In this document: piece after piece, positions 1-61,463 of the stretch
Layout: each line of letters opens with the position of its first letter
How positions within the stretch are numbered: the stretch's first letter is position 1
From: Psilocybe cubensis
Taxonomy: Eukaryota
NCBI GenBank assembly: GCA_017499595.2
Contig: CM039000.1
Coordinates: 62,001 to 126,000 of the forward strand
Length of the DNA stretch: 64,000 nucleotides
Direction of reading: 5' to 3'
Made by a program: the position numbers and the translations under genes
The notes under the pieces: generated by a model
The model's database searches: none
Seen by the model: the letters and a program-made list of their open reading frames with translations, nothing else
Told to the model about the DNA's origin: nothing

Positions 1-119
1 GCAACAGGACCAGCAAAAGAAAATATAATATTTGCGAGAAAAAGAGACAGACCACACAAAGCAAAGCAGAAATCACACAACGCAGAAACCACGCAACGCA
101 GAACCTTCAAAGCAACCTA

Positions 120-700: not shown

Positions 701-1199
701 GTAGGGTAGGGTAGGGTAGGTATAGGTGTAGTCGTGGTGTTACCGAATCTCACCATACCAGTGAGTCGAGTCGCGGGACGAGACGAGACCAGACCAGACG
801 AAAGGAGGAATCCAGAGAGTCCAGACAGAACGACGAGATAGAATACAAAACGACGTATACACACACACACACACACGCACACACACACACGCACCGTGGG
901 TACCCGTCCAGCTCCCAAGCACCGTTCCCAAGCACCGTTCCAAACCAACTGACCGTCTACAACGCGACTCTTTGAATTTTTCAACCTATCATCGCACCAC
1001 CGCGCACCGTTCGCAGTACGCGTACGAGTTGCCAATAGCAAGTGGATCGAATGGGATGGAGTTGGAGTCGCAGTTGTCGATGTAGTTGTAATTGGGGGGT
1101 GGGGGATATGAGTATGTATAGCGCTGCAAAGCCAGCCAGAACCAGACGAGACAAGCCGATACGACATCGCATAACCGACTTATACCCAAGTAAACCCCG

Positions 1200-2365: not shown

Positions 2366-2993
2366 GAACCCAGAACTCGCAAGCGCGCTCGCAGATAACT
2401 TTATCCACCCAGCCACCCAGACCAGACCCGTAAACGAATAAACGAATACGAATAAACGAATGCCCCAAACAAACGAACGTCCAAAACCGGCTCAATACCA
2501 CCACGCGCGCGAAGACATCAGAATCCACGCTAAATGAAAAAGAATTCGGAGGGGGGGAACAAGGGGAGTATCTTATTTGGGACGATGTCACGGTGGATCA
2601 GGTGGGAGTCGGGCGCAGAGTGGGAAACAGATCAACTTGGACCCCGGAGTGCGTTTATGTGCACCTTCAGAGATCCTCTATGTGTAGTGAATACAGTGAG
2701 ATGGTTTTCGAGGATGTAGTAAAGAGTTGTTGTATAATATCAGAGTGGTTGAACAGCGCTGTTGCCAGGGAGGGAGGGAGGGAGCCTGGAGTGTGAAAGG
2801 GAACTGGAAGCGGGGAAGGAGAGTCCGGGGTCCTATGCCAGTTGGACTAGTTCTGATTTTGATGGGGAGAAGACAGATAGATGTCAGTATAAGAAGCCCA
2901 AAAACAACAACCACTCTTTCCGTCCGCCCCTCCCACCCATTCCCTTTCACAACCCACTTTCCCCTTTCCCTACACACAACCACAAACGACAGA

Positions 2994-5497: not shown

Positions 5498-5829
5498 GTG
5501 TACGCTGTGGCTAGCGTAGCGATGGCATGAGTGCACGCATTCGCGTTCCACATTGCCGCCGTCTCCGTCTCCGTCTCTCAACTCTCAACTCAACTCTCAA
5601 CTCTCATTTTAAAACGAACCTCACGATAACCTTTCCATTTTCTCTCTCCGTTTTTTTTTTTCTTTTCATTTCATTTCCACTTCTTTCCACTTTTTCTTTT
5701 TTTCTTCCTGTTCTCAAGTCCAAGTCTAATCACACCCGCCCGCTCACACTGCTCGTATCGTATCGTATCGTATAAACTGTAGCCTTACCTCTCGCTTTCG
5801 CTTTCGATTTCTTTTTCTTCTCTTGTCTC

Positions 5830-6482
5830 GTCATCGTCATCGTCTCGTCTCGTCCTCATCTCCTGCTCTACACCATACCCACACCCCTAACACTCAACCC
5901 CCTCCCATCGTCCGCCGTCCGCCGTCTGAATCTGATATACCGTCTGATGTCTAGTTTGAAATCTCTTCTGAAATCTGTAGCATAGCATAGCCATCCCATC
6001 TCGCACATACACATACACATACACATACCTATACCTGTTTAATCACCTATCACCTATCCATGTATGTATATCACTCTCTTCGCACCTCAGTGTCCTAGTG
6101 ATGCAGCTGTGCTAGATTTGTTGTTTAGTTGGTTGGGTTGAATTTAAATGTAGCTTTATTGTTGGTTTATTTTATGTTGCGCTGTGTTGCGTGGTCTGTT
6201 TTGCGTGGTTTGAGTGGTCTGTTTTGCGTGGTTTGCGTGGTCTGTTTTGCGTGGTTTGCGTGGTCTGTTTTGCGTGGTTTGCGTGGTCTGTTTTGAAGGT
6301 TGCTTTTCTTTGAAGGGTGCTTTAAAGGTTGCGTTGCGTTGCGTTGCGTGGTCTGTTTTGCGTGGTTCTGCGTTGTGTGGTTCTTCTTTGCTTAGCGTGG
6401 CTTCTTCTTTGCTTAGCGTGGTTTCTGCTTTGCTTTGCGCGTTGTCTGCATGACCGTCGAACATCGAACGTCGACCTTCCTG

Positions 6483-6490
<8 letters not shown>
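5830..6490. repeat. Right arm of the diverged inverted repeat flanking the HMG gene
   Basis: Reverse complement of ~120-700 (see left arm). Confidence 0.85.
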
Positions 6491-6554
<64 letters not shown>

Positions 6555-7033
6555 CAAGGTCAAAGCCTGAAGCTTGAAACTTGAAGTTTGAAACTTGAAG
6601 TCGAAGCCTGAAGCCTGAAATTCCACCAACATCCGAATTCCAAACTCTCAATTTCAATTCTGTTCTGCCAACATACCTTGATTTCAAGTTGGGGTTGAAC
6701 TTGACGTTAAAGTGGAAGTTGGGGTTGAAGTTGAAGTTGAAGTTGAAGTTGAAGTTGAAGTTGAAGTTGAAAGAGGCTGAAAGAGGCTGAAAGGGACCGA
6801 TACCAACAACCAACTTTCGAATTTTCTCGTTCGTTGAATCATCGAATCTACACCATGTCGTGTAGTACCGTGTCGCGCGCGGATCGGACTTGGGATTCGG
6901 GATTCGTGTCGTTCATCTCTTACTAAGTATTCCTTGGACTTTCGCCTTCAACTCGCAGTGAGAATATCGATGTCAATGTCGTTGTCGATGTCCCCGCGGA
7001 GTCCTGAGTCCTGAGTCCTGAGTCCTGAGTCTT
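6483..7033. repeat. Microsatellite cluster: (TCGAACA)10 at 6483-6552, (GTTGAA)8 at 6724-6771, (GAGTCCT)~5 at 6999-7033
   Basis: Read directly from the sequence. Confidence 0.95.
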
Positions 7034-18515: not shown

Positions 18516-19883
18516 TATGGCTGCCCAAGTGGGGAAATATTCCCCGTAAACTTGTTTAGGTTTTTTTCTTATTGCGTGAATCTGTAAAAACTATGTTGGA
18601 GCGCGGAAACATTTTTTGAGTGCGCAGATTGTTTTTTAGGTTAGCCATAAAAATATTTGACTGCGCGGAAACATATTTTGGGCATATTTTTCCAGCGCAT
18701 ATAAATTTCTACTGCCCTCAATTATATTCAATGCATAAACCCTGTGCGCGTAGATACATTTTGTGCCGCAAACAAATTTTTCGATGCGCGGAAAACATTG
18801 TTCAGTTGTACTATTTCTAGCCCAAAGTGACCAGCCGTTATGCCGAGATTATGTAAAATGATCTAAAATGGCACTTCGGCACACCTAAACGAGTTCAAGC
18901 TCCACCTGACAGTGATATTGAGGATTGTGTATTGCAAGGCTAACCCACATTCATTTAATTACAAATTTCTTAGTATATCTAATCTATGCTCTTTTGAAAT
19001 ATATTAATGTTGTTTTAATCAAGTAATGTGGGATAATCGTCTTGAAATCGCCGTGAACGTTGCTTGAACGTGAAGTGTCGCTTTCTTGCACAGCCACTAA
19101 TGCGCAATTGTGATGGCCGCTGCTAATACTTTACTTCGTACACAGTAGTTGCGGGTAATATTTTGACATATTCTCGTAGATACCTATGTAATACATATCT
19201 TACCATGCTTTTCAATTTTATTCTCCTATTCCCTACTCTCCAAATGCACAAATGCGCTCAAGAATGCACTGATTGATGTCTTTCCCACGATAGATGAGGT
19301 TATTTCACACAATGCTAGAGATGTCTGAAATGGCGCACTAGCTGCACCACTAATGGGGAGACCCCAGAACCACTGGGGATTTGCTAATGCTACATGTAAA
19401 GCACTGCAGAAATTGTTATTTTGTCCTATAAGGCAGTACTAGATAGAATAACCATGCATTGTGTATACAACTGTCGGAGTTTGAACTTGTTTTGGTGTGC
19501 CGAGGTGCCATGTTAGATCATTTTACATAATCTCGGCATAACGGCTGGTCACTTTAGGCTAGAAATAGTGCAACTGAACAATGTTTTCCGCGCATCGAAA
19601 GATTTGTTTGGGGCTCAAAATGTTTCTATGCGCATAGGATTTATGCATTAAATATAATTGAGGGCAGTAAAAATTTACGTGCGCTAGCAAAATATGTCCA
19701 AAATATGTTTCCGCGCAGTCAAATATGTTTCCGCGCAATCAAATATATTTACGGCTAAGCTAGAAAACAATCTGCGCACTCAAAAAATGTTTCCGCGCTC
19801 TAACATATTTTTTACAAATTCACGCAGTAAGAAAAATACCTAAATAAGTTTACGGGGAATATTTCCCCACTTGGGCAGCCATA
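18516..19883. mobile_element. Non-autonomous DNA transposon (MITE/foldback-like) with ~400 bp imperfect TIRs and a 6 bp TSD GCAAGG
   Basis: Begins TATGGCTGCCCAAGTGGGGAAATATTCCCCGTAAACTT and ends AAGTTTACGGGGAATATTTCCCCACTTGGGCAGCCATA. Inverted similarity extends over ~18516-18910 and ~19470-19883. GCAAGG at 18510-18515 and 19884-19889. No transposase ORF inside. Confidence 0.92.
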
Positions 19884-25802: not shown

Positions 25803-27852
25803 AACGTCATACCTAACATCCAGCGGGTTTTGAAGTCCAAATCAAACCTTTCGGCAATCAATCGGCATTGTGCCGACAATGATAAAAAAAGGAAGTACTT
25901 AAGGGCATAATCCACGTGCGCCCATTGGCCAGTTATTGTCCGGATCTTGCGCGCTTGAAAAGCGAGCCAAGGTTCCAGTATTTTCCATGACAGAGCACAG
26001 CGAGCAGCGCATTCCGCAGCGCATATATCGTCGTCGCCGTGTCTCTAAAACCTACCAAAAAATTCACGATTTACTCATGCACTCCCCCGGCAACTTCTCT
26101 GGCTATTGCAACTCCCGAGAGTGTGCTGGGTTTGCGATCCTCATTTTTTCACAGCGTGTTGAAACCCGCAGCAGCTCTGCGAAAATTTGCGCGTTGTCTG
26201 CGAGCATCGAGTCGGTTATGATCTGGGAGGATGGACGTGTGTGTGAGTGCAACTCGTTTGTGTTGTGCAATGGATCGTACTGCGGTTTCTAGGTTCAAAT
26301 GTGCACGCTACTGTCGACGTCCAAGACCTTCCCAAGATGACAAGGCCATGCCCAACGTCCTCCTTTGCAAACCCATTCCGAATTGCGAATCTCGTTTATA
26401 CACTTCTTGCTATCTACTTCTCGGTTCCAAATCCCATTTCCGTTTCTTTCCGGGCCCTCATCCTGTCTCCTTTCCGCGTTTTACCTGACAGGATTGTGAT
26501 TCAGGTTTTGCATGTCAAGCCGCAACCGGACTGTCAGCTTCGAAATTGGGTTGGAACTTGAGGGTAGGATTCGGCCTTTGACTTGGCGTGTTCTTGGAAC
26601 TGGAATCGGAATGAGAGAATCCACGTCATTCACACCCCCACACCCCGCAGCAGGAGCTCCTCATCTAAGTATATCTCTGGTACCTTCGCACTTTAACTTT
26701 AGGCTTAGACTTGGCTTGGGCTTGGGCTTGGGCTCAATTGTGTACGGATTGAATGCCGTTGCGGAAGTCTATCTAGTGATCTTCTGCCAGGCGCTTTCTT
26801 TCTTAACTGCGACACGGACGCGGATAAATACCCCAAACCTCAAAATCTATCGCTTCTATGAATCAAGACAACGGAATGGATCGAAGGCCTTTATGAAAGT
26901 CAATGAAGATAACAAATCGCTGACTCGTCGAATGCGTACAAATCGCATATCACAGCTCCATCGTCTCGCCGCACATCCCAGTGAGTCTGGGATGTGCGGC
27001 TAGTATACTAGCAAAGCGCTGAGTTGAGAAGCCTCTGATGCATCACTTACCTGCGCCACTAGATCCTCATTCCGAGGCACTAATGTTGTGAAAACAAGCC
27101 ACGGTGAGCCAACTCACAATATTATTGACTTACATGCTTATGATACAGTCGATCACCGTCATTGGGTTCGTCATTCTTTGCTATGGTGTCCTGAAGTACA
27201 TCTACGCTTTCAAGGTAACCCAAATCCCAAATATTGATTGAAACTACGACATGCATTATCGCAGAATTCACATTCATTTCATTCGTAGAGTCATGTACAC
27301 GATGGACGGTGAGCAATTCATTATTCTAGCGGCGAGTGCAGGGTACCAAGCTTAATTATGCATGCGCAAACGATATAGAAAAATCCCTCTACTGTTGCGC
27401 TGACGACCAAGTAGGCGGCTATTCAAATCCATCCACTCTGGACAATACGCGAAAACATCGTTCTCTTGCTTTGTTTTACGCCATCCAGATCACCTCGCAA
27501 ACGGGACTGACGAGGGTTCAGAGCCCAGATCACGCCTTCCCATAGCGACAGAACGGCACGGAAGTTTGGACGAGGCCGATTGTTGGGGACTTCGACGTTT
27601 TATCGAGGAATAAGATTACCTAGCCATCCACTCTTCATGTACTTCCTGTAGATGGACTCTCGGGGTAGGTTGTACACACAAGCACGTTATCGGACAGATG
27701 TTTTTAGCCTCTCATTCATATTTCGCGTACGGCAGGATATGCAAGATATCATGGGCGGCTCTCCCCCCTTCGCGCGCTGCTACTTAAGTGGTACATGAGT
27801 ATTTTCGTACATATCTCTGCAGTAACCCAGTTGTTTATTGTTTAACAATCCC

Positions 27853-28870
27853 TCACGAATCAACCTTTACTTCTTTCTCGCGCTTCAAGTGTCTTTTTCT
27901 CTTCTTCCGAATCGGAAAGCCATTGTCATCCAATCCTAAACAAAATGAGCAAATAGATATAACCATTCCGTATTAAAGAGCTTACCCAATTTTGCGCTTC
28001 CCATCATCAATAGGATCCCACTAACTATTGCCATTGAACGGTAGTTGGGAGAGATGGGCCAATTTAAGCAGGCTGCTACATTCTTTCCAAACTCTTTGTC
28101 CTGAAAACTCATAGCACGGACTGTAAATTGTGCAAAGGATTCGGGAAGGATCGAGACCATCTCGAAGTCAATAAGGCACACCTTTCCACTTTTATCAAGT
28201 AGAAAGTTGCTTCGGGCCATGTCCGACTGGGTGAAAACCAGTTTTTCCCCTGCAAAACTTACTTTTGATGGCCTTGAGTACGGATGCGTATGATCGACTC
28301 CCTACGATGATATAGTTAATGGTGTATTACAACTTTATCCACTATTTTACGCACCTTGTTCACGTATCTCTCAAGTGCATCAATGCTCTCGAAGCGTAGA
28401 GGGGCATCGTAATCTTTAAAAAACCTATTATGCGCATAGCCGCCTCCAAGGTCTCCTATGCCTGCCCCGGGAGGAATAGGCACGTCGCGTAGCCACTGAA
28501 TTGCCTTCGCTACTCCCTCGTACGATGTATCCGCTGGAGATGCGCCCTCAATGTTCTCCATCACAAAGTACCACCGTCTATCATCATGTTCGCTGAAGTC
28601 GTCATCCATATCCTCAATCTCCCCCTTGGATGCTTTAAAGAAATCCACCGGTTGGGGAACATGTGGAGCTTCTGGGTCCTCCGCAGACATCCTATAGATG
28701 TACTTCTGAGTGTGGTACTGGAATCTTAGATAGCTACAAAAGCCGTATTTGATGAAATATTTTCCCATGACAGTGCAAAGGCGTGCAGGAGTGACGCTCG
28801 ACTTCATTTCCTCCATGCAGCAGTGCTGAACAATTTCCAACCGTTCTGACGTAAATAGTGTGGATTCCAT
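27853..28870 (-). CDS. Protein kinase-like / APH-family phosphotransferase, copy 1 (3 exons)
   Basis: YFIKYG, PHVPQPVDFF, YFVMENIEG, catalytic-loop-like FTQSDMARSNFLLD and CLIDFE. Intron 28354-28302 is in frame. The last exon is GLDDNGFPIRKKRK...DS*. Confidence 0.8.
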
Positions 28871-29865
28871 AAGAGATAGACTGTAGGTGACTGTTTGTAT
28901 GAGGTTTGGGGATGGGAAAGTTCATGTCGGATTTCGATGGCAACTTTTATAGAACCGGCGACGCACACAGGCAGCGGAACTTTCGGCTAGTCAGGGTCGG
29001 CCAAGGCAGTAGTCCAAAAATGATTATCCCCACTAGATGACTTGGTACGACTAGTTCAAATCAGAGCAACTCACAAAACCATTTCACAATGGCATTATGG
29101 TATGCAGTATGTAATTCTTTTCCTAAATACCCGGTGCACAAATTCGTAGCTATTAGAAGAAGAAACTGTTCAACTTGACTGCCGTTGTGTCTGAATACTC
29201 GGTAACAAAAAACAAAGTAATTGGCCACGGCATTAAGGTGGCATTACTGTGAGATTGCAGTCTAGACCAGTAGCGACCGTGTATATGTCACTCAATTACA
29301 CGCCTAAACTAACCCACGGTCGTCAACATTTACCTGAGCCTGCAGTGTTGATGCGTGGCGAGACTATATATGTTGAAAGGATTTGCTGGTGCCTGCTTGA
29401 TAGTGAGGACATGTGGCATATTGAAGAAATGAGCGTATGATGATGGGCAGCAAGTTGGGACTGACCATATTAATAGTCGTGCAGTTGGGGGAGCAAGGTG
29501 TATAGAGGGTATATATATCAGGACGGGGGGAGGTGAGTGACCAATAACATTAGATGCGTTCATATGGCTCACTGCGCACAGAAGACGAGGACGGAGTACG
29601 AATGTCTCGTCAACGCACCTTGCAACTCACATTGGCACGCTGCCCTCAAGTCGGTGAACCTCGTGTAGGTGCATTGAGAGGAAGGGAGGGAGTCGGACAC
29701 ACTCAGAGTGAGCTTGGTACAAGAGAAACTTTGGCCCTGGCTCTGTTTCTGGCCGTACACAATGGTCCCATCTGCTTCATTCTCAGTTCTTTGGCACAGT
29801 GGCTCTCCCTCCAGTACGCACTGCTATTAAAGTGGTACACAAGTATGTCTATATACGAGTCTGTA

Positions 29866-30913
29866 TCAACTCTGCTGCTTGACACCTATGCGCCCTCGAG
29901 AATTAACCTTTCCTTCTTTCTTGGGCTTCAGGTGTTCTTTTCTTTTTTTCCGAATCGGAAAGCCGTTATCATCTAATCCTAAACAAAATGAGCAAATGGA
30001 TAAAATGATTCCGTATTAAAGAGCTCACCCAATTTTGCGCTTCCCATCATCAAGAGGATCCCACTGACTCTTGCCATCGAATAGTAGTTGGGAGATACGG
30101 GCCAATTTAAGCAGACTGCTACATTTTTTCCAAACTCTTTGTCTCGAAAACTGTTACCACGGACCGTAAATTGTGCAAAGGACTCGGGAAGGATCGATAT
30201 CATCTCGAAGTCGAGCAGGCACACCTTTCCACTTTTATCAAGTAGAAAGTTGCTTCGGGCCATGTCCGACTGGGTGAAAACTAGTTTTTCACCTGCGAAA
30301 CTCACTTTTGGTGGCCGTGAGTATGGATGTAAACAATCGACTCCCTATGGTGATAAATTTAATAGAGTACTATAGCATTATCCAAATTTCTACGCACCGT
30401 ATTCACATACCTCTCAAGCGCATCAATGCTCTTGAAGCGTAGAGGTGCCTCGCAATCTTTAAAAAACTGGTTGTGTGCATATCCGCCTCCAAGGTCTCCT
30501 ATGCCTGCCCCGGGAGGAATAGGCACGTCGCGTAGCCACTGAATTGCCTTCGCCACTCCCTCGTATGCTGTGTCGGCTGGAGATGCGCCGTCAATGTTCT
30601 CCATCACAAAGTACCACCGCCTATCCTCGCGCTCGCCGAAGTCGTCGTCCATATCCTCAAGCTCGCCCTTGGATGCTTTAAAGAAATCCACCGGTTGAGG
30701 AACATGTGGAGCTTCTGGGTCCTCCGCAGACATCCTATGGATGTACTTCTGAGTGTGGTACTGGAATCTTAGATAGCTACAAAAGCCGTATTTGATGAAA
30801 TATTTTCCCAGTACAGTGCAAAGGCTTGCAGGAGGGATATTCGATTTCATTTCCTCCATGCAGCAGTGCTGAACAATTTCCAACCGTTCCGACGTAGTTA
30901 GTGTGGATTCCAT
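29866..30913 (-). CDS. Protein kinase-like / APH-family phosphotransferase, copy 2 (3 exons)
   Basis: Closely similar paralog of copy 1 offset by ~2043 bp, with the same intron positions and motifs (FTQSDMARSNFLLD, CLLDFE). Confidence 0.8.
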
Positions 30914-31701
30914 AAGAAGTAGACTGTGAGGTGGTTGTTCGTACGATGAGGCTTGGTGAGTGGGAAATCAACGTGTCAGCTTTTACGGAGACGGCGGAAA
31001 CTGAAAGTCCAACACATCAGCAACGGTCCGAATTGTCCGATTGGTCCGAAGACCAAAACATGACTCTGAACTCACGAGGAGTCAAGCCACCATTTTAAAG
31101 TCAAGATATAGATCGCATTGAAATTATTCTTCCCAAAATTGTTGCACATCCGTATGTGGCATCAAGGTAGCATCAAGAAACCTTTAACAGACTATAACTT
31201 ATCACCAGTCTTAAACTTACCTTGTACACATACTCATCCTGCCGCCTGCGTCCACTATAAATTCTTACACAATTTTGGTTGCAATTGTCGGAAGCTTCGC
31301 ATATGACTCAATATCCAGCCGCTCTGAATCAACCTTGATATACATTCCGGAAGTTAAAATGAGTGTATCCATAATTCCGGAGTAAAATCGTCCTTTGGTC
31401 CTGTAGGTACTTTCTCATACTGATCTGTAATGCGATAAACCCAAAATAGGTTGTCGAGGAAACATACTACACGTTGCCGGCTTTCATTGTTTGTGTGCAC
31501 TGTGGCACCACATTTTTTGTTTAGGAGTATCCTGAAAACTTATTTAAGGCGACAGTTCTCTTAGTTTTCTCCCCACCGAACGTCCAATTACAACGAGTCC
31601 CATATCGACACCATACCATCACCACAGTGAGCTTTTACGGTTCCTTTCCCTCCGCAGCATGACCCATCTGTGGCGACACACTTTACTGACAATGTACTTA
31701 G

Positions 31702-37705: not shown

Positions 37706-38075
37706 TGTAGCAACTCGAACAGATTGTAACTATCTTATCTTATCATCTCTTTAGTTTTTGATTTGATCTAGCTATGACACTTCGATTACTTTACTTTAGT
37801 CTTCGTCATTCTGCTCCTACAAACTCACCCTCTTAATATGTATATACATCACTATGACCTCCTACTCCAATTACTACTCCAATGCTCCAAAGTATCTAGT
37901 GTATATAAGTAGTTGTAAATTGTACCAAGGAGGAACAACTTGAAATACGAACCCAAACCTTTAAGCTGTCTGTTTTATCACCTTTCCTCTCACCTCTCAC
38001 AATCATATCTCATCTCGTGTGGCTGTACTTAGATTAATAAGCGTAACTGTACGAATTAGTCTGACTACCGTCACA
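37706..38075 (+). repeat. 5' LTR of element A
   Basis: TGTAGCAACT...ACCGTCACA. Matches 61094-61463 except T37913 vs C61301. Confidence 0.97.
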
Positions 38076-38820: not shown

Positions 38821-39445
38821 TGTGGGAACCCACTACCGTCTGCGATCAAAAGCGCGCGCGATAGCAAAAGCCTGGCGTCACGAGACAGAGCAAAAGCCCA
38901 TAGCTGTGCCGACGGATGCGACTTCCGACGTGATACAGGAGCGCTGCACCGATGACCTTATCACACACAGGGGAAGATAAGGGACAAAATGCAAGATAAG
39001 TCTTTTCAAACTACAGCATACGAGTGCGTGCGCCACACTCGCCAAGGGGGGTCGAATAAGGAAATAACCACGACCGCCAAGCATTGATGAGCCCCTGTCA
39101 AAGCGCCCACAGGCGCAACGAACAAGGAAACGAGTGTCACGGAGGAGGTGGTGTCTGGCTCAGCACGCAGCAGTAACAGCTTGGCGAAGATAACAAATTA
39201 CTATATATTAACTTAGGTAGTGGGAGACAAGACTTTAGTGGAATACAGAGCTATTTTTTTTCCCTCACATTTCGTCCACCTTGTCTCGGAGTGAATCGCA
39301 CTCGGCAAGGATCGATCTGTTTCGATTTTCTCTCAATTAAAACTCCAACTTGCATCTTGCTACACCATTCAGACATTATCTACAACCTTGGACATTGCAG
39401 ACGGAGTCTGCAAGCTTCGCACACACACAACTTTAACTCACTTCA
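38821..39445 (+). repeat. 5' LTR of element B
   Basis: Matches 52371-52995 except C39323 vs T52873. Confidence 0.97.
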
Positions 39446-39466: not shown

Positions 39467-39704
39467 TTCTAAAGGTTGTAAACCACCCTATCCTTGATTC
39501 TTGAGTGCCCCAAACAAGGAGGGACTCGAGAACACCCAAGACGCCACGGAAACGCGTCCAACACCTACATATTTTCCCCATTATTTTCACTACCGCCAGC
39601 CTTTATCTGAAACCGATTCGTCATCGGATTCATCGAACGCCTTTGCACAATCGTCCCCGACTCGACCCACATTTGTTCCAGTAAATTGGGGAATTGCAAC
39701 CAAG

Positions 39705-40846
39705 ATGGCGCCACCAAATATGCCTAGCAAGAACCATAGCTCCGCTCCCAAGTTCGATGGAACTGCGGGGTCACTTCCTATGTTTCTAGACGACATTGAA
39801 CAGCTAGCAACGAGCTGTGAGCTTACCCCCAAGCAGACCATCGATTGGACGATTCGTTATGCCCCAGGAAGCGACGAACACGAGCTATGGAGCGGTTTAG
39901 ATACCTCGTCAGGCGATGACTGGATTGCTTTCAAACGCGAGCTGCTTGCACAGTATCCCGGATCGACAGGAGACAGGAAATACTCAGTTGCAAATCTGGA
40001 AATGCTCACTGAAAAACAAGCTGCCGGACAAATCACGAACTCGGAACAATTTGGAACATATTACCGCGCATTTTCGAAAATTTCACGGTTTCTTAAATCG
40101 AAAAACAAGTTGAACGATCGTGAAATAAGTAACCTGTTCATGAGAGGTCTAGACTATGCCTTCAGAGTACAGGTCCGAGCCCAGCTAAGGGCTGAAAACC
40201 CGAAGCATCACAGTGACGACCCTTACACGCTAAACCAAATATGCGAGGCAGCACTATTCATATTATCCTGCAACCACGACGACACCGAAATTGTGGCGCC
40301 AGCACTCGAAGCGTCTCCCTCAGTCAAGCGCGAGCATTTTGATATATCTAGTATTGCTCCAGCACTGCAACAAACGAGCAACTTCAACATGAGTGCCCTG
40401 GCACTGGAACTCATAAAACAGATGAACTTACAACATGCTCCATCAAACGTGTACCAAAACGCCCAGAATCAAGGGTACCCGACGTTGCAAACTCAAGGAG
40501 CACCTACACCTCGCAACAACGACTGTTCCTTCTGCTCTGATCCATCACATTATCAACATAGTTGTGCCAAAGCGGTGGAATATATCAAAAAGGGGCTCTG
40601 TGTGCGCAATAGCGAAAATTTCTTGGTGCTACCAGATGGGACACGTGTCACTCCTCGAACCGCACCGGGAAGGAATATCATGGAACGTGTTGATAACTGG
40701 CATAAAAGCAAATCTGCTAACTCGCCAACTGTATCATCAAACATGGTGAGTGCAGGTTCGGAGTTCAAATGGGAGATTCCCACGACGTCGGCTTTCGCCG
40801 CCGCGATGGACTTTGCGCACAACGAGGTTGCACCACCTACCGAACG
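39705..40846 (+). CDS. gag: Element B ORF1 (Gag-protease), 5' part, interrupted by element C
   Basis: MAPPNMPSKNHSSAPKFDG..., Zn-knuckle-like CSFCSDPSHYQHSC. Rejoins 47242-48166 in frame (PTER-EIEDLQIMES), 688 aa in total. Confidence 0.9.
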
Positions 40847-41296
40847 TGTCAGGGCAACACTATAATCAGTGTGACAAGGCCACCAACAAAGATTAAGCAA
40901 GAGAGAGAGAGAGAGAGCAGAGGGAGAGTAAGAGAGCAAAGAGAGAATAAGAGAGTGAGAGAGATTCAATGGTTCTAAGAGATCACACCAATGATAGTGG
41001 ATATCCTAAGAGATTGAAGCTGAAGCTACAGCTACCTACAAGTCCAGTATTTATACTCTACAGCTATTCTAGAATATTCCCTACATTACATCATAAAGGA
41101 AGGTTAAAGAATAAAAGTGACATCATATAGAAAAAGGATGAGTAAGACTAGGAATCATATAGAATTTACTAGAAAGAAGTGGAGCAAGAAGGCTGTGATG
41201 AAAGAAATAAACTATCTAATCAGATAATTGATAAGATAATGAAAGGATAAGATAATTCTGTAAAGATAAAGAGGGGAAACTGGAGAAACCCTGACA
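40847..41296 (-). repeat. 3' LTR of element C
   Basis: Matches 46787-47236 except C41280 vs T47220. Preceded on the minus strand by PPT AGAGAGGGGGTGA, which also holds the pol stop codon. Confidence 0.97.
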
Positions 41297-46786: not shown

Positions 46787-47236
46787 TGTCAGGGCAACAC
46801 TATAATCAGTGTGACAAGGCCACCAACAAAGATTAAGCAAGAGAGAGAGAGAGAGAGCAGAGGGAGAGTAAGAGAGCAAAGAGAGAATAAGAGAGTGAGA
46901 GAGATTCAATGGTTCTAAGAGATCACACCAATGATAGTGGATATCCTAAGAGATTGAAGCTGAAGCTACAGCTACCTACAAGTCCAGTATTTATACTCTA
47001 CAGCTATTCTAGAATATTCCCTACATTACATCATAAAGGAAGGTTAAAGAATAAAAGTGACATCATATAGAAAAAGGATGAGTAAGACTAGGAATCATAT
47101 AGAATTTACTAGAAAGAAGTGGAGCAAGAAGGCTGTGATGAAAGAAATAAACTATCTAATCAGATAATTGATAAGATAATGAAAGGATAAGATAATTCTG
47201 TAAAGATAAAGAGGGGAAATTGGAGAAACCCTGACA
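46787..47236 (-). repeat. 5' LTR of element C
   Basis: Contains minus-strand TATAAATA at 46995-46988 and a (GA)n tract. Confidence 0.97.
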
Positions 47237-47241
47237 GAACG

Positions 47242-48166
47242 CGAAATTGAGGACTTACAAATCATGGAATCGCTTGTGGCATCTACACAAAAGAAAATTG
47301 ACGATACCAGAAAGAAGTACTTCGGGACCAAGGGAACCGGGGGACCAGCAACGAGAAGCAAAACCAAGGCGGCAGATACGATTTCCCACGACCCGACCAA
47401 GACACTCGCACCGGCCGTTCCAACCATACCTGCATCGCACTCGGCCAACAGTACACATTTCAGGTACTCTACACCCATAGAAGAGGTAAAAATCGTGAAG
47501 AAAGTACTGGATACAGCACTAGACGCCACAGTGACGCTGTCCAACAGGGAACTGCTGGCAGTGGCACCAGAGGTGAGGAGACAGTTCAAGGACCTGACTA
47601 CGGCCAGACGCATCCCTACCGAGCAGACAGGGTCTAGCATGGTAGTAGGAATGCCTCAGAGTGAAGAATACTCGGCTTACCTTGCTTCGCTCTTGCCCAA
47701 CAAAGAAGGGATGGTAGTGGCAGACCATGTACAAGAGTTGAGATGTCTAGACTTTACCATTGGGGACATGAAGGTCGAAGGGATCATGGATGAAGGGTCC
47801 CAAATTGTTGGAATCAGGAAGGACATCTGGGAGAAGCTGGCAGTTCCAATCAGGTCCGACCATGTGATGGTTATGGAGTCAGCCAATGCAAGCAAGGACA
47901 AGACACTCGGACTCATACAAAACCTGAAGATATCCATTGGAGGATATGACTTCTATGTGCAGGTGCAAGTGGTCCAAAACGCACCATATGAACTCTTGGT
48001 AGGACTGCCTTTCATGTGCCTCACGCGTCTGGTCACTAGGCACTTTGAGGACGGGTCATCTGAAGTAACTATGATTGATCCTAACTCTGGAGCGGAAATA
48101 ACAGTTCCAACTCGCAAACGGGACCGAAGCAGCACAACAGCCGCCACAGTCAGTGTGGATTTTTAG
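47242..48166 (+). CDS. Element B ORF1, 3' part including the aspartic protease
   Basis: IMDEGSQIVGI protease motif and YELLVGLPF. Ends G GAT TTT TAG (slippery heptamer). Confidence 0.9.
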
Positions 48167-51100
48167 GGGTTGATGAATCGAATATAAATCGAGGAGACCA
48201 GAGTCTTCACATCATAAATACGTCAAATGTTTCTATTTCTCAATCCAATTCCTTTTCTCGCTATTACACGTCTGATAACCGAAATCAAAACGCATCGCTC
48301 GCATATAAAAAAGTCGCCAATCAAATTAAACCCGTCGCAACAACGCTACCCGAAAAGTTTCGCATTGTACGACGCATTCCGTCAGACCCGCTTGCAGATC
48401 TGCCTGCTCTTCCGACCAGACCGCCCGAATTTACACCAGGACAACGATACACACTACAAAGAAAAGAAGCCATGAAAGTTAACCCAGACGGATTCCTCTG
48501 GCCAGAGGAAGAGAAATTGGTGCACCACATAATACTGTTACACAAAACCGCGTTCGCATGGGATGAATCCGAGAAAGGAAAGTTTAGTGACAAGTATTTC
48601 GACCCAGTGGTGATACCCACTATTGAACATGTCCCATGGGTTCTGCGTAACATCCCCATTCCTCCAGGAATCTTCCATCAAGTGGTAGAGGTCATCAAAA
48701 ACAAAATATCGTCGGGAATATATGAACCATCAAATTCATCGTACCGGTCGCGTTGGTTTTGTGTACTCAAGAAAGATGGGAAATCTCTACGAATTGTGCA
48801 CGACTTACAACCATTAAATGCGGTCTCAATTAAGGATAGCGCACTTCCGCCCATGGTAGAACAGTATGCTGAAGCCTTTGGCGGACGAGGCTGCTATGCA
48901 GTGTTTGATCTGTTTGTAGGGTTTGATCAACGGTCTCTGGCAGTCGAATCACGCGATTTGACAACATTCCAGACGCCTTTAGGCACCTTCCGATTGACAT
49001 CTATTCCAATGGGGTACACAAACTCGATGCAAATCCAACACGGCGACACAACATTTCTACTACAAGATGAGATTCCCCATATAACAATGCCCTTTGTGGA
49101 CGATATTCCAGTGAAAGGGCCGGCAACGCAATATGAACTGGAAGAGGGATCCTTTGAAACGATCAGAGAAAACCCAGGGATTAGGCGCTTTGTATGGGAG
49201 CATCTCCAGAATGTAAATCGGGTGATCCAACGAATCAAACACGCAGGGGGTACGTTCTCAGCGGCGAAGTCATTCCTGTGTGTCGAAAGTGCCATTGTTG
49301 TTGGACATAAGTGCACGTATAATGGTCGCGTGCCAGACGAATCACGGGTTCAGAAAATAACAGATTGGCCAATTCCACAAAACCTTACGGACGTCCGTGG
49401 CTTTCTGGGTACACTAGGGACCATACAAATGTTCATCAAGGATTTTGCTATTCATGCCAAACCGCTTGTACAGCTCACCCGAAAGGACATGGACTTCGAG
49501 TTTGGGGAGACTCAGTTTGCATCACTGGAGAAGATGAAGATACTGGCCAGAACGTGTCCGGCTATCAGGGCAATCGACTACACATCTGGAAACGAGGTTA
49601 TACTCGCAGTAGACTCGTCGTGCATCGCGGTAGGATTTATTCTATCACAGCTGGGTGACGATGGGAGAAGATACCCGTGCAGATTTGGCTCCATAACATG
49701 GAACGAACGCGAGCAGCGATATTCACAAGCAAAAATTGAGCTCTATGGCCTCTTCCGGGCACTCAAAGCGTACCGGGTGTTCATAGTCGGCGTGCACAAC
49801 TTAGTGGTGGAGGTCAATGCAAAATACATAAAAGGTATGATCAACAATCCAGATATCCAACCGAGCGCAACCATAAACCGGTGGATCGCGGGTATCCTCC
49901 TATTTGACTTCAAACTTCGGCACGTCCCTGCCAAAGACCATGCGTCTGCGGACGGACTATCGAGGCGACCCAAAGCAGACAATGATCCAGACGAAGCAGA
50001 AGATCATGACGACTGGATAGATAATGCATATTCCTTTGCAATAGAGTGCTTGAACCACCAGGCTGTGCGTGCGGCTCAAGTCACCAGTAACAACAAAGCA
50101 TTACGAATGGATGCATCTGCTCTTGTAGCAGCAATACATGTCAATATGGCTATTCCTCGTAACAGCAAAAGCGAAGCGCGCGATCGGGACCTCGAAGCAG
50201 TTCATATGTTTCTAGAAGCACCCAAGCGACCAGACAACATGTCTGACGCAGAATATACCAAATTTCTTCGTCTGGTATCAAACTACTTCATCTTGGACAA
50301 GCAGCTGTGGAGGAAGGACAGGCATGGCAGACACAAACTTGTCATTTCGCCCGAGCTACGCTACAAACTTCTCAAACAAGCACACGATGATTTAGGTCAT
50401 AAAGGGATCTATACAGTGCGGATGCGACTTCTCGAACGATTCTGGTGGCCAGATCTGGAATTGGATGTCAAATGGTTTATAAAGACGTGTCACGAATGCC
50501 AGACCCGAAATACCATGAAAGTTTCGATACCAGCGACAGTGCCAATGCCGGCAGGGCTTTTCAGAAAGGTTTATGTTGACACTATGCTCATGCCAAAAGT
50601 GCGCGGATTCCGCTACATAATACACGCCCGTTGCTCGTTAATATCATACCCCGAATGGGTGGCCACTCGAACCGACGACTATACGGAAATAGCCGCTTTC
50701 CTGCTTCAGATCCTGACACGGTGGGGTGCAATAGAAGTGATTGTGACAGACAATGCCCCCCAGTACCTGCTTGCTGCCAAACATCTTGCAGAACGATATC
50801 ATATTCACCACATCCGAATATCTCCTTATAACTCTTGTGCACAAGGCCCGGTTGAACGTAGGCATTATGATGTACGAGAAGCAATAATAAAAGCCTGCAG
50901 AGGGGACGAGTCAAGGTGGCTGGATGTGGTGAGTTCGGTGTTCTGGGCGGAGAGAGTTACCATACAAAAGTCGACGGGTTATTCACCCTACTACCTCGCA
51001 CACGGCGTCGAGCCTTTATTCCCTTTTGATCTCGCTGAAGCAACCTATTTAGCACCGCCTTTGGAGTCCTTGGTATCGACAACAGACCTTATTGCACATC

Positions 51101-51525
51101 GAGCTAGAATGCTTCAAAAGCGGCCAGCAGACTTACAACGTGTCAAGGAACAGGTATTCAAGTTGCGTTGGGCAGCAGTGCAACAGCTAGAGAAGAAACA
51201 CATGGAAAACAGGACCGATTTTGACTTTAAACCGGGAAGTCTAGTGCTTATCAGAAATTCACGTTTCGACAAGGGCCTACAAAACAAGACAAAACCTCGA
51301 TATGTCGGACCAATGCTGGTAGTGAAACGAACACAAGGAGGCTCATATATTCTCAGCGAGCTAGATGGAGCCATATCCCGCTTGCGCTTTGCAGTGTTCA
51401 GGCTGATTCCTTATTTCCCACGGACCCTAGCGTCGGTTCCTGTTACATCCATGGTTGACGATGACCTCGCCAACGTTGAAGAGAATACTCACGACAGCGG
51501 AAATGTATTGGACGTCGAATTTTGA
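48163..51525 (+). CDS. pol: Element B Pol (RT-RNase H-IN), entered by a -1 frameshift
   Basis: The frame is open from 48163 into the track ORF 48472-51525. Motifs LRIVHDLQPLN, FVDD, AVDSS, HHCC, VTDN..VERRH and YVGPM. Confidence 0.93.
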   Translation, partial: LGVDESNINRGDQSLHIINTSNVSISQSNSFSRYYTSDNRNQNASLAYKKVANQIKPVATTLPEKFRIVRRIPSDPLADLPALPTRPPEFTPGQRYTLQRKEAMKVNPDGFLWPEEEKLVHHIILLHKTAFAWDESEKGKFSDKYFDPVVIPTIEHVPWVLRNIPIPPGIFHQVVEVIKNKISSGIYEPSNSSYRSRWFCVLKKDGKSLRIVHDLQPLNAVSIKDSALPPMVEQYAEAFGGRGCYAVFDLFVGFDQRSLAVESRDLTTFQTPLGTFRLTSIPMGYTNSMQIQHGDTTFLLQDEIPHITMPFVDDIPVKGPATQYELEEGSFETIRENPGIRRFVWEHLQNVNRVIQRIKHAGGTFSAAKSFLCVESAIVVGHKCTYNGRVPDESRVQKITDWPIPQNLTDVRGFLGTLGTIQMFIKDFAIHAKPLVQLTRKDMDFEFGETQFASLEKMKILARTCPAIRAIDYTSGNEVILAVDSSCIAVGFILSQLGDDGRRYPCRFGSITWNEREQRYSQAKIELYGLFRALKAYRVFIVGVHNLVVEVNAKYIKGMINNPDIQPSATINRWIAGILLFDFKLRHVPAKDHASADGLSRRPKADNDPDEAEDHDDWIDNAYSFAIECLNHQAVRAAQVTSNNKALRMDASALVAAIHVNMAIPRNSKSEARDRDLEAVHMFLEAPKRPDNMSDAEYTKFLRLVSNYFILDKQLWRKDRHGRHKLVISPELRYKLLKQAHDDLGHKGIYTVRMRLLERFWWPDLELDVKWFIKTCHECQTRNTMKVSIPATVPMPAGLFRKVYVDTMLMPKVRGFRYIIHARCSLISYPEWVATRTDDYTEIAAFLLQILTRWGAIEVIVTDNAPQYLLAAKHLAERYHIHHIRISPYNSCAQGPVERRHYDVREAIIKACRGDESRWLDVVSSVFWAERVTIQKSTGYSPYYLAHGVEPLFPFDLAEATYLAPPLESLVSTTDLIAHRARMLQKRPADLQRVKEQVFKLRWAAVQQLEKKHMENRTDFDFKPGSLVLIRNSRFDKGLQNKTKPRYVGPMLVVKRTQGGSYILSELDGAISRLRFAVFRLIPYFPRTLASVPVTSMVDDDLANVEENTHDSGNVLDVEF

Positions 51526-51654
51526 CACCGTCCCAATCTTGCAGCCAACCCTACTAATCTATAAAAATTTCTTTTCTCTCAAGGACTGTCACTTAGAATC
51601 GACCGATTAAAAAACTGTCAAATAAACAAAAAACAAGCAACAAATAACTATTTA

Positions 51655-52327
51655 TTACACCCGACGCCCGCTCCTAATGCCCCACTGCAAACCACTGTCT
51701 GGAATCACCTCTGTGACATCCTGTTCCGGCTCGCCTTCATCCCTGGCCTCGTTCTCGCCTTCCAAAAGTGGCATGTCATCGGTCCCACTGTCAGAGGAAA
51801 CGTAAATGGAATCGTCCTCCCCATAAATAGCCTTCTCGATCTGCTCAATATACCACGAGGTTATATCAAACCGCTCGCGTTGCTCCCCATTTATAATGGT
51901 GTAGACTGCTGCAATGGCATCGCGTTGAGCACACTGGGGAACACGGTCCGCAGATCCTCGTTCCAATGCACTCTGGAACGTGACGAGGTCACGGTCAAAG
52001 ACACTGACTATCAAGTCAAGCTCCCGCATCGCGTGGCGGCTGCTCGCCATGCCGCGCTGTCACACCATAGGTTAATATACGTGGAAACATTTGCAGAATG
52101 GTTAGGCTTACCACGGCATTAAGAAAGTGGATAAAATTAAAGAAGTCGCCTCGCGGTCCATGGCTGCCCTCCGTAATGACGCGCATGCCGGCGGCAACCG
52201 TAAAGCTCGTGTCTCGGTGCCAGTGTTCGGTAGCAAAGAGGTTGATTCGGTGGATACTGTTTTCGGTGAAAACTCTAAGCATGATGAAAGTGGTGCTGAA
52301 GTCCGAATTGAGTGTTTGGATGGGCAT
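51655..52327 (-). CDS. Spliced antisense accessory gene within element B (exons 52327-52112, 52056-51655; ~205 aa, unknown function)
   Basis: A 55 bp intron GTAAGC...TATTAAC...GACAG (52111-52057) joins two minus-strand ORFs in frame (..FIHFLNAV-RGMASSRHAMRELD..). TATAAA at 52358-52353. Confidence 0.75.
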
Positions 52328-52370
52328 TTCCAGGTTGACACGGAGGTCAACATTTATAGTACCGGGGAGG

Positions 52371-52995
52371 TGTGGGAACCCACTACCGTCTGCGATCAAA
52401 AGCGCGCGCGATAGCAAAAGCCTGGCGTCACGAGACAGAGCAAAAGCCCATAGCTGTGCCGACGGATGCGACTTCCGACGTGATACAGGAGCGCTGCACC
52501 GATGACCTTATCACACACAGGGGAAGATAAGGGACAAAATGCAAGATAAGTCTTTTCAAACTACAGCATACGAGTGCGTGCGCCACACTCGCCAAGGGGG
52601 GTCGAATAAGGAAATAACCACGACCGCCAAGCATTGATGAGCCCCTGTCAAAGCGCCCACAGGCGCAACGAACAAGGAAACGAGTGTCACGGAGGAGGTG
52701 GTGTCTGGCTCAGCACGCAGCAGTAACAGCTTGGCGAAGATAACAAATTACTATATATTAACTTAGGTAGTGGGAGACAAGACTTTAGTGGAATACAGAG
52801 CTATTTTTTTTCCCTCACATTTCGTCCACCTTGTCTCGGAGTGAATCGCACTCGGCAAGGATCGATCTGTTTTGATTTTCTCTCAATTAAAACTCCAACT
52901 TGCATCTTGCTACACCATTCAGACATTATCTACAACCTTGGACATTGCAGACGGAGTCTGCAAGCTTCGCACACACACAACTTTAACTCACTTCA
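52371..52995 (+). repeat. 3' LTR of element B
   Basis: Direct repeat of 38821-39445. Confidence 0.97.
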
Positions 52996-58900: not shown

Positions 58901-60071
58901 ATTATTGAATCCGTTACCTGTACCTGGAGTACCGTGGGAATCGATAGGTGTGGACTTCGTGGGACCACTTCCTGAGTCAAAGAATAGAAACAGTACTTTT
59001 GATTGCATTGCCGTGGTCATCTGTTTACTTACAGGAATGGTTCATCTAGTACCAGCTAGAATTAACTACAATGCAAAACAAATGGCTGAGTTAATGTTTG
59101 AAGAGGTTTACAAACACCATGGTTTACCTAAACATATCATTAGTGACCGAGATGTCTTGTTCACGAGTACATTCTGGATTCAATTAAATAAACTAATAGG
59201 TACTGAACTCAAGATGTCAAGTGCCTATCATCCAGAAACAGATGGATCCACGGAACGTGCTAATCGGACTATCACGCAGATGTTGCGAAACTGTGTATCA
59301 ACCAAACAAACCGATTGGGTTAGTAAATTACCTAACATAGAGTTTGCCATTAACTCTGCTCGATCCGAAAGCACTGGATACGCTCCATTCTTTTTAAATA
59401 CAGGTCGCATGCCTCGATCAATGATCTGGGACTATGCAGATAAGTCTGAATACCCGTCCGTTCGAAGCTTTGCACTCCAACGGAAGCTTGCCATAATTGC
59501 CGCCCATGATAGCATTTTAGCATCACGAGTCAAACAAACTCAAGACGCAAATAAACGTCGCAGAATGGCTCCATTTACTAAAGGAGATCTAGTATATGTC
59601 TCTACAAAGAACATTTCATTCCCTAAAGGTTATGCACGTAAATTAGTGCCTAAGTTTATTGGACCTTACTTAATTTTAAGAGACTTTGGAAATCAATCTT
59701 TTGAAATTGAGCTGCCTCGTTATCTAAAACAACGCGGTGTACACAATGTATTCCATGCGTCTTTGCTTAGGATACACATCCCTAATGACGATAGATTATT
59801 CCCAGGAAGAAACACCACACAATTAAACCTAGAAAGCGAATTTGAACCTGAATGGGCAGTGGATAAAATTTTGAGTCACTCGGGCTCCAAAGACCATGCC
59901 ATTTTTGAGATTCAGTGGAAAGCAGGCGACAAAACATGGCTCCCATATCAACAAATTACGCACCTCAACGCTCTGAAGGAATACCTCGAGCTACTGGGAG
60001 TTGAAACCATTCTTTCTCTCCCTCCTGGGTCAGGAAAACCCCCTCAGAATGACCCACAAATTAGCCAATGA
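53000..60071 (+). CDS. pol: Element A gag-pol, 3' part (capsid, CCHC, unknown 4-repeat region, PR, RT, RNase H, IN, chromodomain)
   Basis: PKEYDG, CFTCHEPGHMSKNC, LLDTGS, YLDDII, VTDGC..TDHK, HHCC and D,D,E integrase, FIGPY, EWAVDKILSH..FEIQWK..TW. No stops or frameshifts. Confidence 0.95.
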
Positions 60072-60203
60072 CTTCATCGCACCATTCTCACTGTTTTATC
60101 GTATAAATACTCTACTATTCGTCAGTTAATTTCGTTCCCAATATCACACAGCTATCAACTCAAATCACAACCAGTTCATTTCGCTTTTTCTATCACTATC
60201 ACC

Positions 60204-61022
60204 ATGGACTCACTCAAATTCAATAAGATCACCGAATCTGCATCTGTTCGTCCAGGAACACCTCGTCCTGTTCATATTCATCACAGCCCTTCGCTTAACG
60301 CTTCGATTGTATCCGACCATGGTGACGAAATTCCAGACATTCATCTTGATGTTGCTACAGCTACAGCTGCACTCACTCCTCCTGCACCTGCTCAGCTTGT
60401 TACTCGTCGTACCATTCCTCCACGATATCCTACATTCATTCACCCATATATATCTCGTCCTAGCCGCACCACCATTCGTGTCCGCGATCAAACCAACTCG
60501 TTAAACCACCGAATCTTTCATATCGGGCAAATTGCAGTTTTCTTGTTAACTGATAAACGCATTCGTGCCGGTCGATTTAACCCTGACCTTATGCCTGAGG
60601 GTTATCTTCAATTTGCTCATGATTTTAATCACGCTAATCCCACCAACAAACGGCTCTCACGTTACTTATCCACCACGAACGAGTTCATCTGCGAAGGAGA
60701 AGCACCCACCTTTGAAGATTTTTGTATTGATCTTACTCTCATAGGCTGGAAGCCATTTTTTTCGACTCCTGTTCGTGCTAATCCTCGTTTCAATAACCCC
60801 AAATCGCTCCTTACCAAGTATAACCGCTTGACGAACGAAATTGAAAGTTTGAGGGCAACTCTGCGTGCAAACGAGTACAATTCCCACGCTTCTTCTTCAC
60901 GCCGCGTTCATAAGCGCCCGCCGCTTTCATCTTTTCCTCCACTCGCTTGCAACCCCAATCCTCTCGAGGATCAACACGACGACGACGACACTACGGGATC
61001 ATCGGCTATGGTTACTGTTTAA
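60204..61022 (+). CDS. Extra sense ORF (272 aa) between pol and the 3' LTR of element A; unknown function
   Basis: ATG-initiated uninterrupted ORF filling the pol-LTR interval. TATAAATA at ~60102. No signal peptide or TM segment evident. Confidence 0.7.
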   Translation: MDSLKFNKITESASVRPGTPRPVHIHHSPSLNASIVSDHGDEIPDIHLDVATATAALTPPAPAQLVTRRTIPPRYPTFIHPYISRPSRTTIRVRDQTNSLNHRIFHIGQIAVFLLTDKRIRAGRFNPDLMPEGYLQFAHDFNHANPTNKRLSRYLSTTNEFICEGEAPTFEDFCIDLTLIGWKPFFSTPVRANPRFNNPKSLLTKYNRLTNEIESLRATLRANEYNSHASSSRRVHKRPPLSSFPPLACNPNPLEDQHDDDDTTGSSAMVTV

Positions 61023-61093: not shown

Positions 61094-61463
61094 TGTAGCA
61101 ACTCGAACAGATTGTAACTATCTTATCTTATCATCTCTTTAGTTTTTGATTTGATCTAGCTATGACACTTCGATTACTTTACTTTAGTCTTCGTCATTCT
61201 GCTCCTACAAACTCACCCTCTTAATATGTATATACATCACTATGACCTCCTACTCCAATTACTACTCCAATGCTCCAAAGTATCTAGTGTATATAAGTAG
61301 CTGTAAATTGTACCAAGGAGGAACAACTTGAAATACGAACCCAAACCTTTAAGCTGTCTGTTTTATCACCTTTCCTCTCACCTCTCACAATCATATCTCA
61401 TCTCGTGTGGCTGTACTTAGATTAATAAGCGTAACTGTACGAATTAGTCTGACTACCGTCACA
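61094..61463 (+). repeat. 3' LTR of element A
   Basis: Direct repeat of 37706-38075, preceded by PPT GGAGGGCGTA. Confidence 0.97.

Follow-up and report, generated by a model that had tools for sequence, protein, structure and literature searches.

A probable spliced antisense gene between pol and the 3′ LTR of a Ty3/Gypsy retrotransposon in Psilocybe cubensis

We analyzed a stretch of 64,000 nucleotides from Psilocybe cubensis (referred to here as the window), and its sequence supports the presence of a protein-coding gene with one intron that lies inside an LTR retrotransposon and runs antisense to it. In the interpretation that we favor, this is probably an accessory gene borne by the element, of the kind that Vicient and Casacuberta call "aORF-3R". 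In agreement with that class, the gene runs opposite to gag-pol in the interval that separates the pol stop from the 3′ LTR, and its carrier has paired LTRs, a target duplication, a polypurine tract (PPT) and protease, RNase H and integrase domains.

The gene occupies the minus strand and is composed of exon 1 (52112–52327; 72 codons from ATG 52327), a 55-nt intron (52057–52111) and exon 2 (51655–52056; 133 codons plus TAA), which encodes the conserved core and an acidic tail. The intron has a GTAAGC donor, a TTAAC 16 nt ahead of a CAG acceptor and a GC content of 40%. A first, sequence-only reading of this DNA had joined two minus-strand ORFs through exactly this intron, and the exons, 52327–52112 and 52056–51655, were confirmed. 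The two exons occupy different genomic frames, and unspliced reading from ATG 52327 ends after 103 aa. Once spliced, the product is 205 aa from ATG 52327 or 190 aa from ATG 52282, and the length of about 205 aa and the acidic tail that had been expected are both borne out: core residues 16–150 have a pI of 6.3, and tail residues 151–205, with 16 D+E, have a pI of 4.05. Candidate signals are present at both ends of the gene. A TATAAA on the minus strand (52353–52358), the putative core promoter, is found on the internal side of the PPT, a few bases away from it, and precedes ATG 52327 by 26 nt and ATG 52282 by 71 nt; it had been reported just inside the PPT and is indeed present at 52358–52353, although the place implied was off by one to two bases. 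At the other end, a minus-strand AATAAA (51651–51656) that overlaps the stop codon is a candidate poly(A) signal.

We scanned both strands of the 64-kb window for one-intron genes under strict settings, taking the first ATG per frame, a donor of the form GT[AG][AC]G[TC], an intron of 45–90 nt, a YTRAY branch and a YAG acceptor, and keeping products of at least 190 aa in which every exon supplied at least 40 aa. The scan returned four loci, two of which use donor 52111, one of them from ATG 52353. The same scan returned no locus in 40 random 64-kb sequences generated by a third-order Markov model of the retrotransposon region. Because none of the 40 random sequences yielded such a locus and because conserved relatives exist (described below), the spliced locus appears to go beyond chance. 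Two other models of the region were rejected. The one that starts at ATG 52353 and uses a 72-nt intron was ruled out since the P. cyanescens protein P0013, introduced below, matches the other exon 1 frame. The other was the plus-strand frame 51565–52122 (185 codons), which might have been an "env-like" ORF in the sense orientation but lacks any Met and matches nothing in Pfam.

The spliced product is identical, letter for letter, to a hypothetical protein of P. cubensis at NCBI, JR316_0002878 (P0010, 205 aa). A second P. cubensis copy, JR316_0006488 (P0003, 190 aa), is located on another scaffold, starts at the second ATG and shows two amino-acid differences. When 1.84 billion representative proteins were searched exhaustively with HMMER, seven scored E <= 0.001, the cluster of the query among them, and a profile search added P0013, a hypothetical protein of 172 aa from Psilocybe cyanescens encoded on a 1268-bp contig. 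Residues 13–70 of P0013 align with 52282–52109 of the window with 33 of 58 positions identical (57%) and many conservative changes (tblastn E 2e-20). This alignment starts at the second Met of the window protein (M16; MLRVF vs MLKVF), reaches the last residue of exon 1 and resumes over exon 2. Since similarity to the P. cyanescens protein starts at M16 and the 15 codons upstream are not conserved, ATG 52282, which leaves 57 codons in exon 1, is likelier to be the start codon than ATG 52327. ATG 52282 also has a good start context, with A at -3. A downstream start near 52282 had been offered as a possibility; with conservation beginning exactly there, it is the better of the two.

The remaining relatives are eight fungal-like ORF fragments from environmental or SRA data (P0004–P0009, P0011 and P0012), called as ORFs of 67–132 aa on contigs of 651–4553 bp. 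They are 29–64% identical to the window protein and keep the exon 2 core, and tblastn of seven relatives against the exon 2 frame gave E values from 1e-10 to 2e-46. In an alignment of 11 sequences (A4), D118 and Y124 are invariant and M127, Q131, F135, W140 and Y141 are near-invariant. Conservation extends into the tail, in the motif P-I-x-V-S-S-D...(D/E)-M-P-x-L-E, and Psilocybe-like members additionally share the C-terminal motif P-D-S-G-x-Q-W-G. One fragment, P0009 (29% identical over the core), has an N-terminus that resembles the first 23 residues from M16 and is in frame with its core. The Smith-Waterman score of this N-terminus, 38, was reached by 0 of 2000 shuffles in the comparison with P0010 and by 13 of 2000 in that with P0013. 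Frames that stay open at 29–40% identity point to conservation at the level of the protein and not to leftover DNA similarity, and the conserved sequence suggests that it is the protein, not antisense RNA alone, that is maintained.

A homologue search had been proposed earlier as a way to learn whether relatives always sit at this position in Gypsy elements. Relatives were found by the HMMER and profile searches, and the position within an element was seen in P. cubensis only. For the DNA context of homologues, we scanned metagenome contigs with the family alignment A3 and P0005, viral contigs with the C-terminus of pol and A3, and genome contigs with A3, and obtained no match in these scans. 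Within the window, tblastn of the family against the remaining sequence revealed neither a further copy nor any relationship with the ORFs at 28316–28921 and 30359–30967. Only eight clusters of the antisense protein were found, at 50–90% identity, against at least 541 relatives in the pol lineage, which suggests that the gene either is not general in the lineage or evolves too fast to be detected. Among 120 of the 541 clusters of pol fragments, none matched a contig bearing the antisense protein in length, a comparison that carries no weight either way.

When supplied with A4, AlphaFold2 produced a model with a mean pLDDT of 71.6, a pTM of 0.59 and block means of 85–97 over residues 21–130; the single-sequence run was poor (pLDDT 51). 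The model consists of an all-helical core followed by the disordered acidic tail, and its helix 63–84 spans the exon junction at residues 72/73. Pfam contained no family for the window protein and gave a stray match (E 0.079) for 1 of the 11 members, a profile search against PDB sequences had a best E of 0.77, and Foldseek returned no match at E <= 0.001. The best VIA-align hit, a designed helical protein with a Z of 9.1, is below the level that is meaningful for helical bundles, and the ESM Atlas yielded no usable match. The earlier impression of a family that could not be recognised is thus upheld, with no match in Pfam, PDB sequences, Foldseek or VIA-align, and the structure prediction and fold search that had been suggested alongside it provided a confident helical core and no fold match. 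The product is therefore predicted to be a helical domain of about 135 residues with a disordered acidic tail, which would be the architecture of an adaptor acting by protein-protein contact.

The carrier, element B, is bounded by a 5′ LTR at 38821–39445 (plus strand, 625 bp, TG...CA ends) and a 3′ LTR at 52371–52995 (plus strand), which self-blastn pairs with it at 99.84% identity. The LTR pair differs by one mismatch (C/T at 39323), and a GTAA target duplication is present on both flanks. All of its coding parts are on the plus strand. The first part of gag (39498–40846) is cut by the nested element A and gave no Pfam match. The second part, gag/protease (47242–48166), matches DUF4100 (PF13352, E 5e-7) and aspartyl protease families (E 3e-4). 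The pol frame (48085–51525) is in the -1 frame relative to gag and encodes a divergent RT, RNase H and an integrase Zn domain. Pfam matches within pol include RT_RNaseH (1e-12) and Integrase_H2C2 (2e-17); the RVT_1 match is weak (14.9 bits, E 0.023) and below the cut-off, the RT being divergent. The order of domains is that of Ty3/Gypsy elements, with the protease in ORF1 and, in pol, RVT_1 at 230–408 (weak), RNase H at 501–602 and the integrase Zn domain at 755–810. The C-terminal third of pol has at least 541 shorter relatives, the best of them 69% identical and named Agaricomycetes among them, and relatives of this pol bear the names Gypsy integrase-like or Gag-Pol. Judged by these features, element B is of the Ty3/Gypsy type. 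The PPT, ACCGGGGAGG (52361–52370, plus strand), directly abuts the 3′ LTR, and the 845 bases that separate the pol stop (51525) from the 3′ LTR (52371) form a spacer that bears the gene on its minus strand.

Self-comparison of the window further showed that three LTR retrotransposons are nested in 37706–61463, A having inserted in the gag of B and B in that of C. Element A, a Gypsy element with a chromodomain, is on the minus strand (LTRs 40847–41296 and 46787–47236, 450 bp) and duplicated GAACG within the gag of B (second copy 47237–41). Element C has LTRs of 370 bp at 37706–38075 and 61094–61463 and a GGCTG target duplication. Each of the three LTR pairs carries exactly one C/T transition, which indicates that the insertions of A, B and C are all young. 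By coordinate arithmetic, the gag frame of B runs on uninterrupted once A and one copy of its target site are removed, so B would have been intact before A inserted; with gag split by A, the window copy of B should now be dead. In element C, we also observed that gag-pol (2408 codons) ends at a TGA at 60069–60071 and that the frame resumes for 316 codons (60072–61019) up to the 3′ LTR. This continuation has no Pfam match and could be the result of stop read-through, a recent nonsense mutation, or an extra ORF in the sense orientation.

Copies of the antisense gene are known beyond the window. Contigs of a second strain, X1, cover 51666–52399 without gap or joint, and the intron within them is present and unbroken. 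Overlapping pieces in X1 link pol, the spacer, the gene and the start of the LTR, with two variants at 51575–51695. X1 also has the same junction of B in C, as a loose end before 52371 matches the 5′ flank in the window. Two other runs, X2 and X3, which were supposed to be RNA, contributed no sequence over 47237–52995, and this has no bearing on expression. Together, the X1 contigs and the two copies annotated on different P. cubensis scaffolds fit a gene that travels with its element and keeps its intron. The reasoning put forward in the sequence-only reading was that an intron antisense to the genomic RNA would not be spliced from that RNA and so would be copied intact through reverse transcription; this logic is sound and agrees with the unbroken intron in the X1 contigs.

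Comparison of the window copy of B (47237–52995) with X1 revealed 64 differences, 62 of which are transitions. The 39 differences listed for gag and pol divide into 22 synonymous and 17 non-synonymous ones, and the latter include a nonsense codon at 51298 in the pol of X1; 29 of the 39 fall at CpG sites, as counted from their contexts. The CpG transitions look like deamination of methylated CpG in a repeat. One listed difference is within the gene (51878), also at a CpG, and changes the conserved R132 to H in X1. In the window copy itself, I takes the place of the near-invariant M127, and residue 70 is N where P0003 and P0013 have D. Taken together, these differences make the copies look like decaying insertions.

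On balance, the gene is likely to be a spliced one with two exons. The same exon junction is present in both NCBI models, P0010 and P0003, and the P0013 model ends exon 1 at the same residue as the window gene; all three of these full-length models (two from P. cubensis and one from P. cyanescens) are gene predictions. The acceptor is not conserved in the predicted P0013 model, which splices to another site and omits 29 residues from the beginning of exon 2. Coverage by the eight fragments is confined to exon 2, except for the short stretch at the N-terminus of P0009 that resembles exon 1. All of them begin within or just before exon 2, P0004 at a Met equivalent to residue 82, and P0006 reads straight through the acceptor position, translating its CAG as Q, as an unspliced call would. 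These fragments are what one would expect if exon 2 alone were coding, as an antisense ORF of 131 aa from ATG 52050, with exon 1 and the intron being artefacts of ab initio prediction; the exon 2 frame, moreover, is already open 3 nt ahead of the proposed acceptor, and this ATG is its third codon. Nevertheless, we consider an intronless gene unlikely, since the stretch of exon 1 between M16 and the donor matches P0013 at 57% identity and ends at the same residue, P0009 combines an exon-1-like N-terminus with the exon 2 core in one frame, and the AlphaFold2 model unites the two exons in a single confident helical domain. In addition, ORF callers that are blind to introns could not have joined exon 1 to exon 2 on such short contigs anyway.

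A host gene, or a fragment of one, that was transduced by the retrotransposon family would be carried as a passenger and would not serve the element. Gene capture by LTR elements is documented, as described in a review of additional ORFs (PMC7264820), and both the very small size of the antisense family relative to the pol lineage and the non-synonymous changes at conserved sites among copies would be in keeping with cargo. However, no host paralogue was found in the exhaustive search, the named proteins being only the two P. cubensis copies and P. cyanescens P0013, and the contigs of P0013 (1268 bp) and of the other relatives (651–4553 bp) are short, as those of repeats are. The gene also comes with a TATA and an AATAAA of its own, for which there is room in the space from pol to the PPT, and its antisense orientation and kept intron match the conserved aORF-3R pattern and not a random fragment. 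We therefore regard a passenger origin as rather improbable. Very improbable indeed is a chance open frame, or an antisense RNA that matters by itself, through dsRNA or copy-number control, and contains a meaningless ORF. Antisense non-coding RNAs do exist in retroelements, Ty1 being one case, and the copies within the species show no evident constraint. The micropia element provides a further case of such an RNA (PMC7264820). Against this stand the 40 random sequences, none of which yields a spliced ORF of this kind, and the relatives at 29–40% identity, which keep W, Y, F, D and M positions as well as open frames where non-coding DNA would not. The part of this explanation that invokes chance is largely refuted.

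For the accessory gene that we prefer, the following course of expression can be proposed. An internal antisense promoter at the border of the PPT and U3, represented by the TATAAA at 52358–52353, would start transcription. The start site would fall near or beyond ATG 52327, and translation would consequently begin at ATG 52282 and yield the 190-aa protein. The 55-nt intron would be spliced from the antisense mRNA only; the sense genomic RNA would carry it as a reverse complement and have it copied whole at every retrotransposition. The transcript would end at the AATAAA that overlaps the stop codon, about 130 nt from the pol stop. The protein itself may act in trans on the cycle of its own element, as an accessory or regulatory factor, via protein-protein contacts of its acidic tail. 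Such a role in trans is our best guess and is made by analogy with what has been proposed for plant aORF-3R and for retroviral antisense proteins. Of the roles offered in the sequence-only reading, anti-silencing and copy-number control would be candidates only, and convergent transcription may additionally form dsRNA as a by-product.

A more specific version of this proposal is tentative, and we hold it to be rather unlikely: a Ty3/Gypsy lineage of Agaricales may have evolved a spliced antisense gene of its own, whose product, a new helical domain joined to an acidic tail that may resemble a SUMO-interaction motif, is needed in trans. If this version were true, the protein might, for example, draw in a chromatin or silencing factor of the host or counteract it, so that fungi would have an equivalent of HBZ and other antisense proteins of retroviruses, and the intron would guarantee expression from integrated DNA copies only, never from genomic RNA.

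The logic of the intron has an engineered parallel. In the his3-AI and neo-AI cassettes, which serve as indicators of retrotransposition, an intron that is antisense to one transcript stays in that transcript through RNA copying. Those cassettes differ in that their intron shares the orientation of the element, opposite to that of the marker, and is lost on transposition. Unlike them, the P. cubensis intron lies in the sense of the antisense gene and for that reason would be kept on transposition. A likeness to retroviruses is also apparent, as HBZ of HTLV-1 and ASP of HIV-1 are minus-strand genes that lie in the 3′-terminal part of the provirus and are expressed from the region of the 3′ LTR, and the HBZ mRNA is spliced. 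The P. cubensis protein showed no sequence or domain relation to HBZ and ASP, with no bZIP or other Pfam family, and the TATA of its gene falls outside the LTR, at the edge of the internal region. For HTLV, the antisense promoter is placed in the 3′ LTR (PMC7264820).

The idea that the arrangement is of a new kind is not supported, as the class has already been described and includes the fungal brtn of Boty (PMC7264820, PMC8365987). In the review's account, additional ORFs that lie antisense in the interval from pol to the 3′ LTR form a known class in plant Ty3/Gypsy elements, with gene23 of maize Grande, RIRE2 of rice, Retand of Silene and PvRetro13 of Phaseolus as aORF-3R cases (PMC7264820). 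No function is known for any antisense extra ORF of LTR retrotransposons. The review suggests roles like those of retroviral accessory proteins, or regulation based on dsRNA (PMC7264820). The P. cubensis gene shares with the plant cases, as the review presents them, its position and orientation within an LTR retrotransposon and the lack of similarity to known proteins. Compared by description, it differs from them in its host, a fungus of the Agaricales, in a carrier with a DUF4100 gag and a divergent RT, and in having one intron, a word that is absent from the main text of the review (PMC7264820). For Grande, the review states that a promoter of its own has been shown upstream of the ORF (PMC7264820), whereas the P. 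cubensis gene has only the TATAAA.

Among fungi, brtn is the sole precedent that we found, in the sources as consulted, for an antisense extra gene in a Ty3/Gypsy element. It has reportedly been described in Boty-like Gypsy elements of Botrytis cinerea and Sclerotinia by Zhao et al. (2011, Virology 417:248). In Boty of Botrytis cinerea, brtn is drawn between pol and the 3′ LTR (PMC7264820, PMC8365987, PMC4227169). Boty is an ascomycete element with a chromodomain, whereas Pfam finds no chromodomain in element B. No Botrytis protein was among the seven matches of the exhaustive search, from whose library brtn may be missing, and, as PMC8365987 reports, brtn is missing from the latest B05.10 annotation. 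Our literature search for antisense ORFs of LTR elements in basidiomycetes, or with an intron, retrieved no specific example.

The arrangement will not surprise retrotransposon specialists, and what the P. cubensis element offers is a clean, young and tractable fungal case of this class of gene. Its handles are a small conserved family, a confidently predicted helical domain, young copies with one LTR mismatch and a basidiomycete host that can be cultivated. The clear intron would let RT-PCR tell expression of the sense strand from that of the antisense strand, and the role of such genes for their element becomes testable. Additionally, a protein that two Psilocybe annotations list as a hypothetical host protein would be retrotransposon cargo, the element context having been seen in P. 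cubensis.

Several other features of the window were recorded in passing. Both copies of a tandem duplication (27850–28919 and 29893–30967, 88.8% identical) contain an ORF of about 200 aa on the minus strand; one of these ORFs passes the strict one-intron scan (293 aa from ATG 28870), and both are unrelated to the antisense protein. A large inverted repeat at 18516–19883, whose arms of about 390–410 bp are 88–93% complementary and enclose about 570 bp of spacer, could be an element of the foldback or MITE-like type. Lastly, positions 1–6650 contain short C/A-rich and G/T-rich repeat arrays with a period of 8–23 nt, which are in inverted orientation and flank a GC-rich plus-strand frame of 914 codons (2753–5497) with a predicted intron at 3442–3503.
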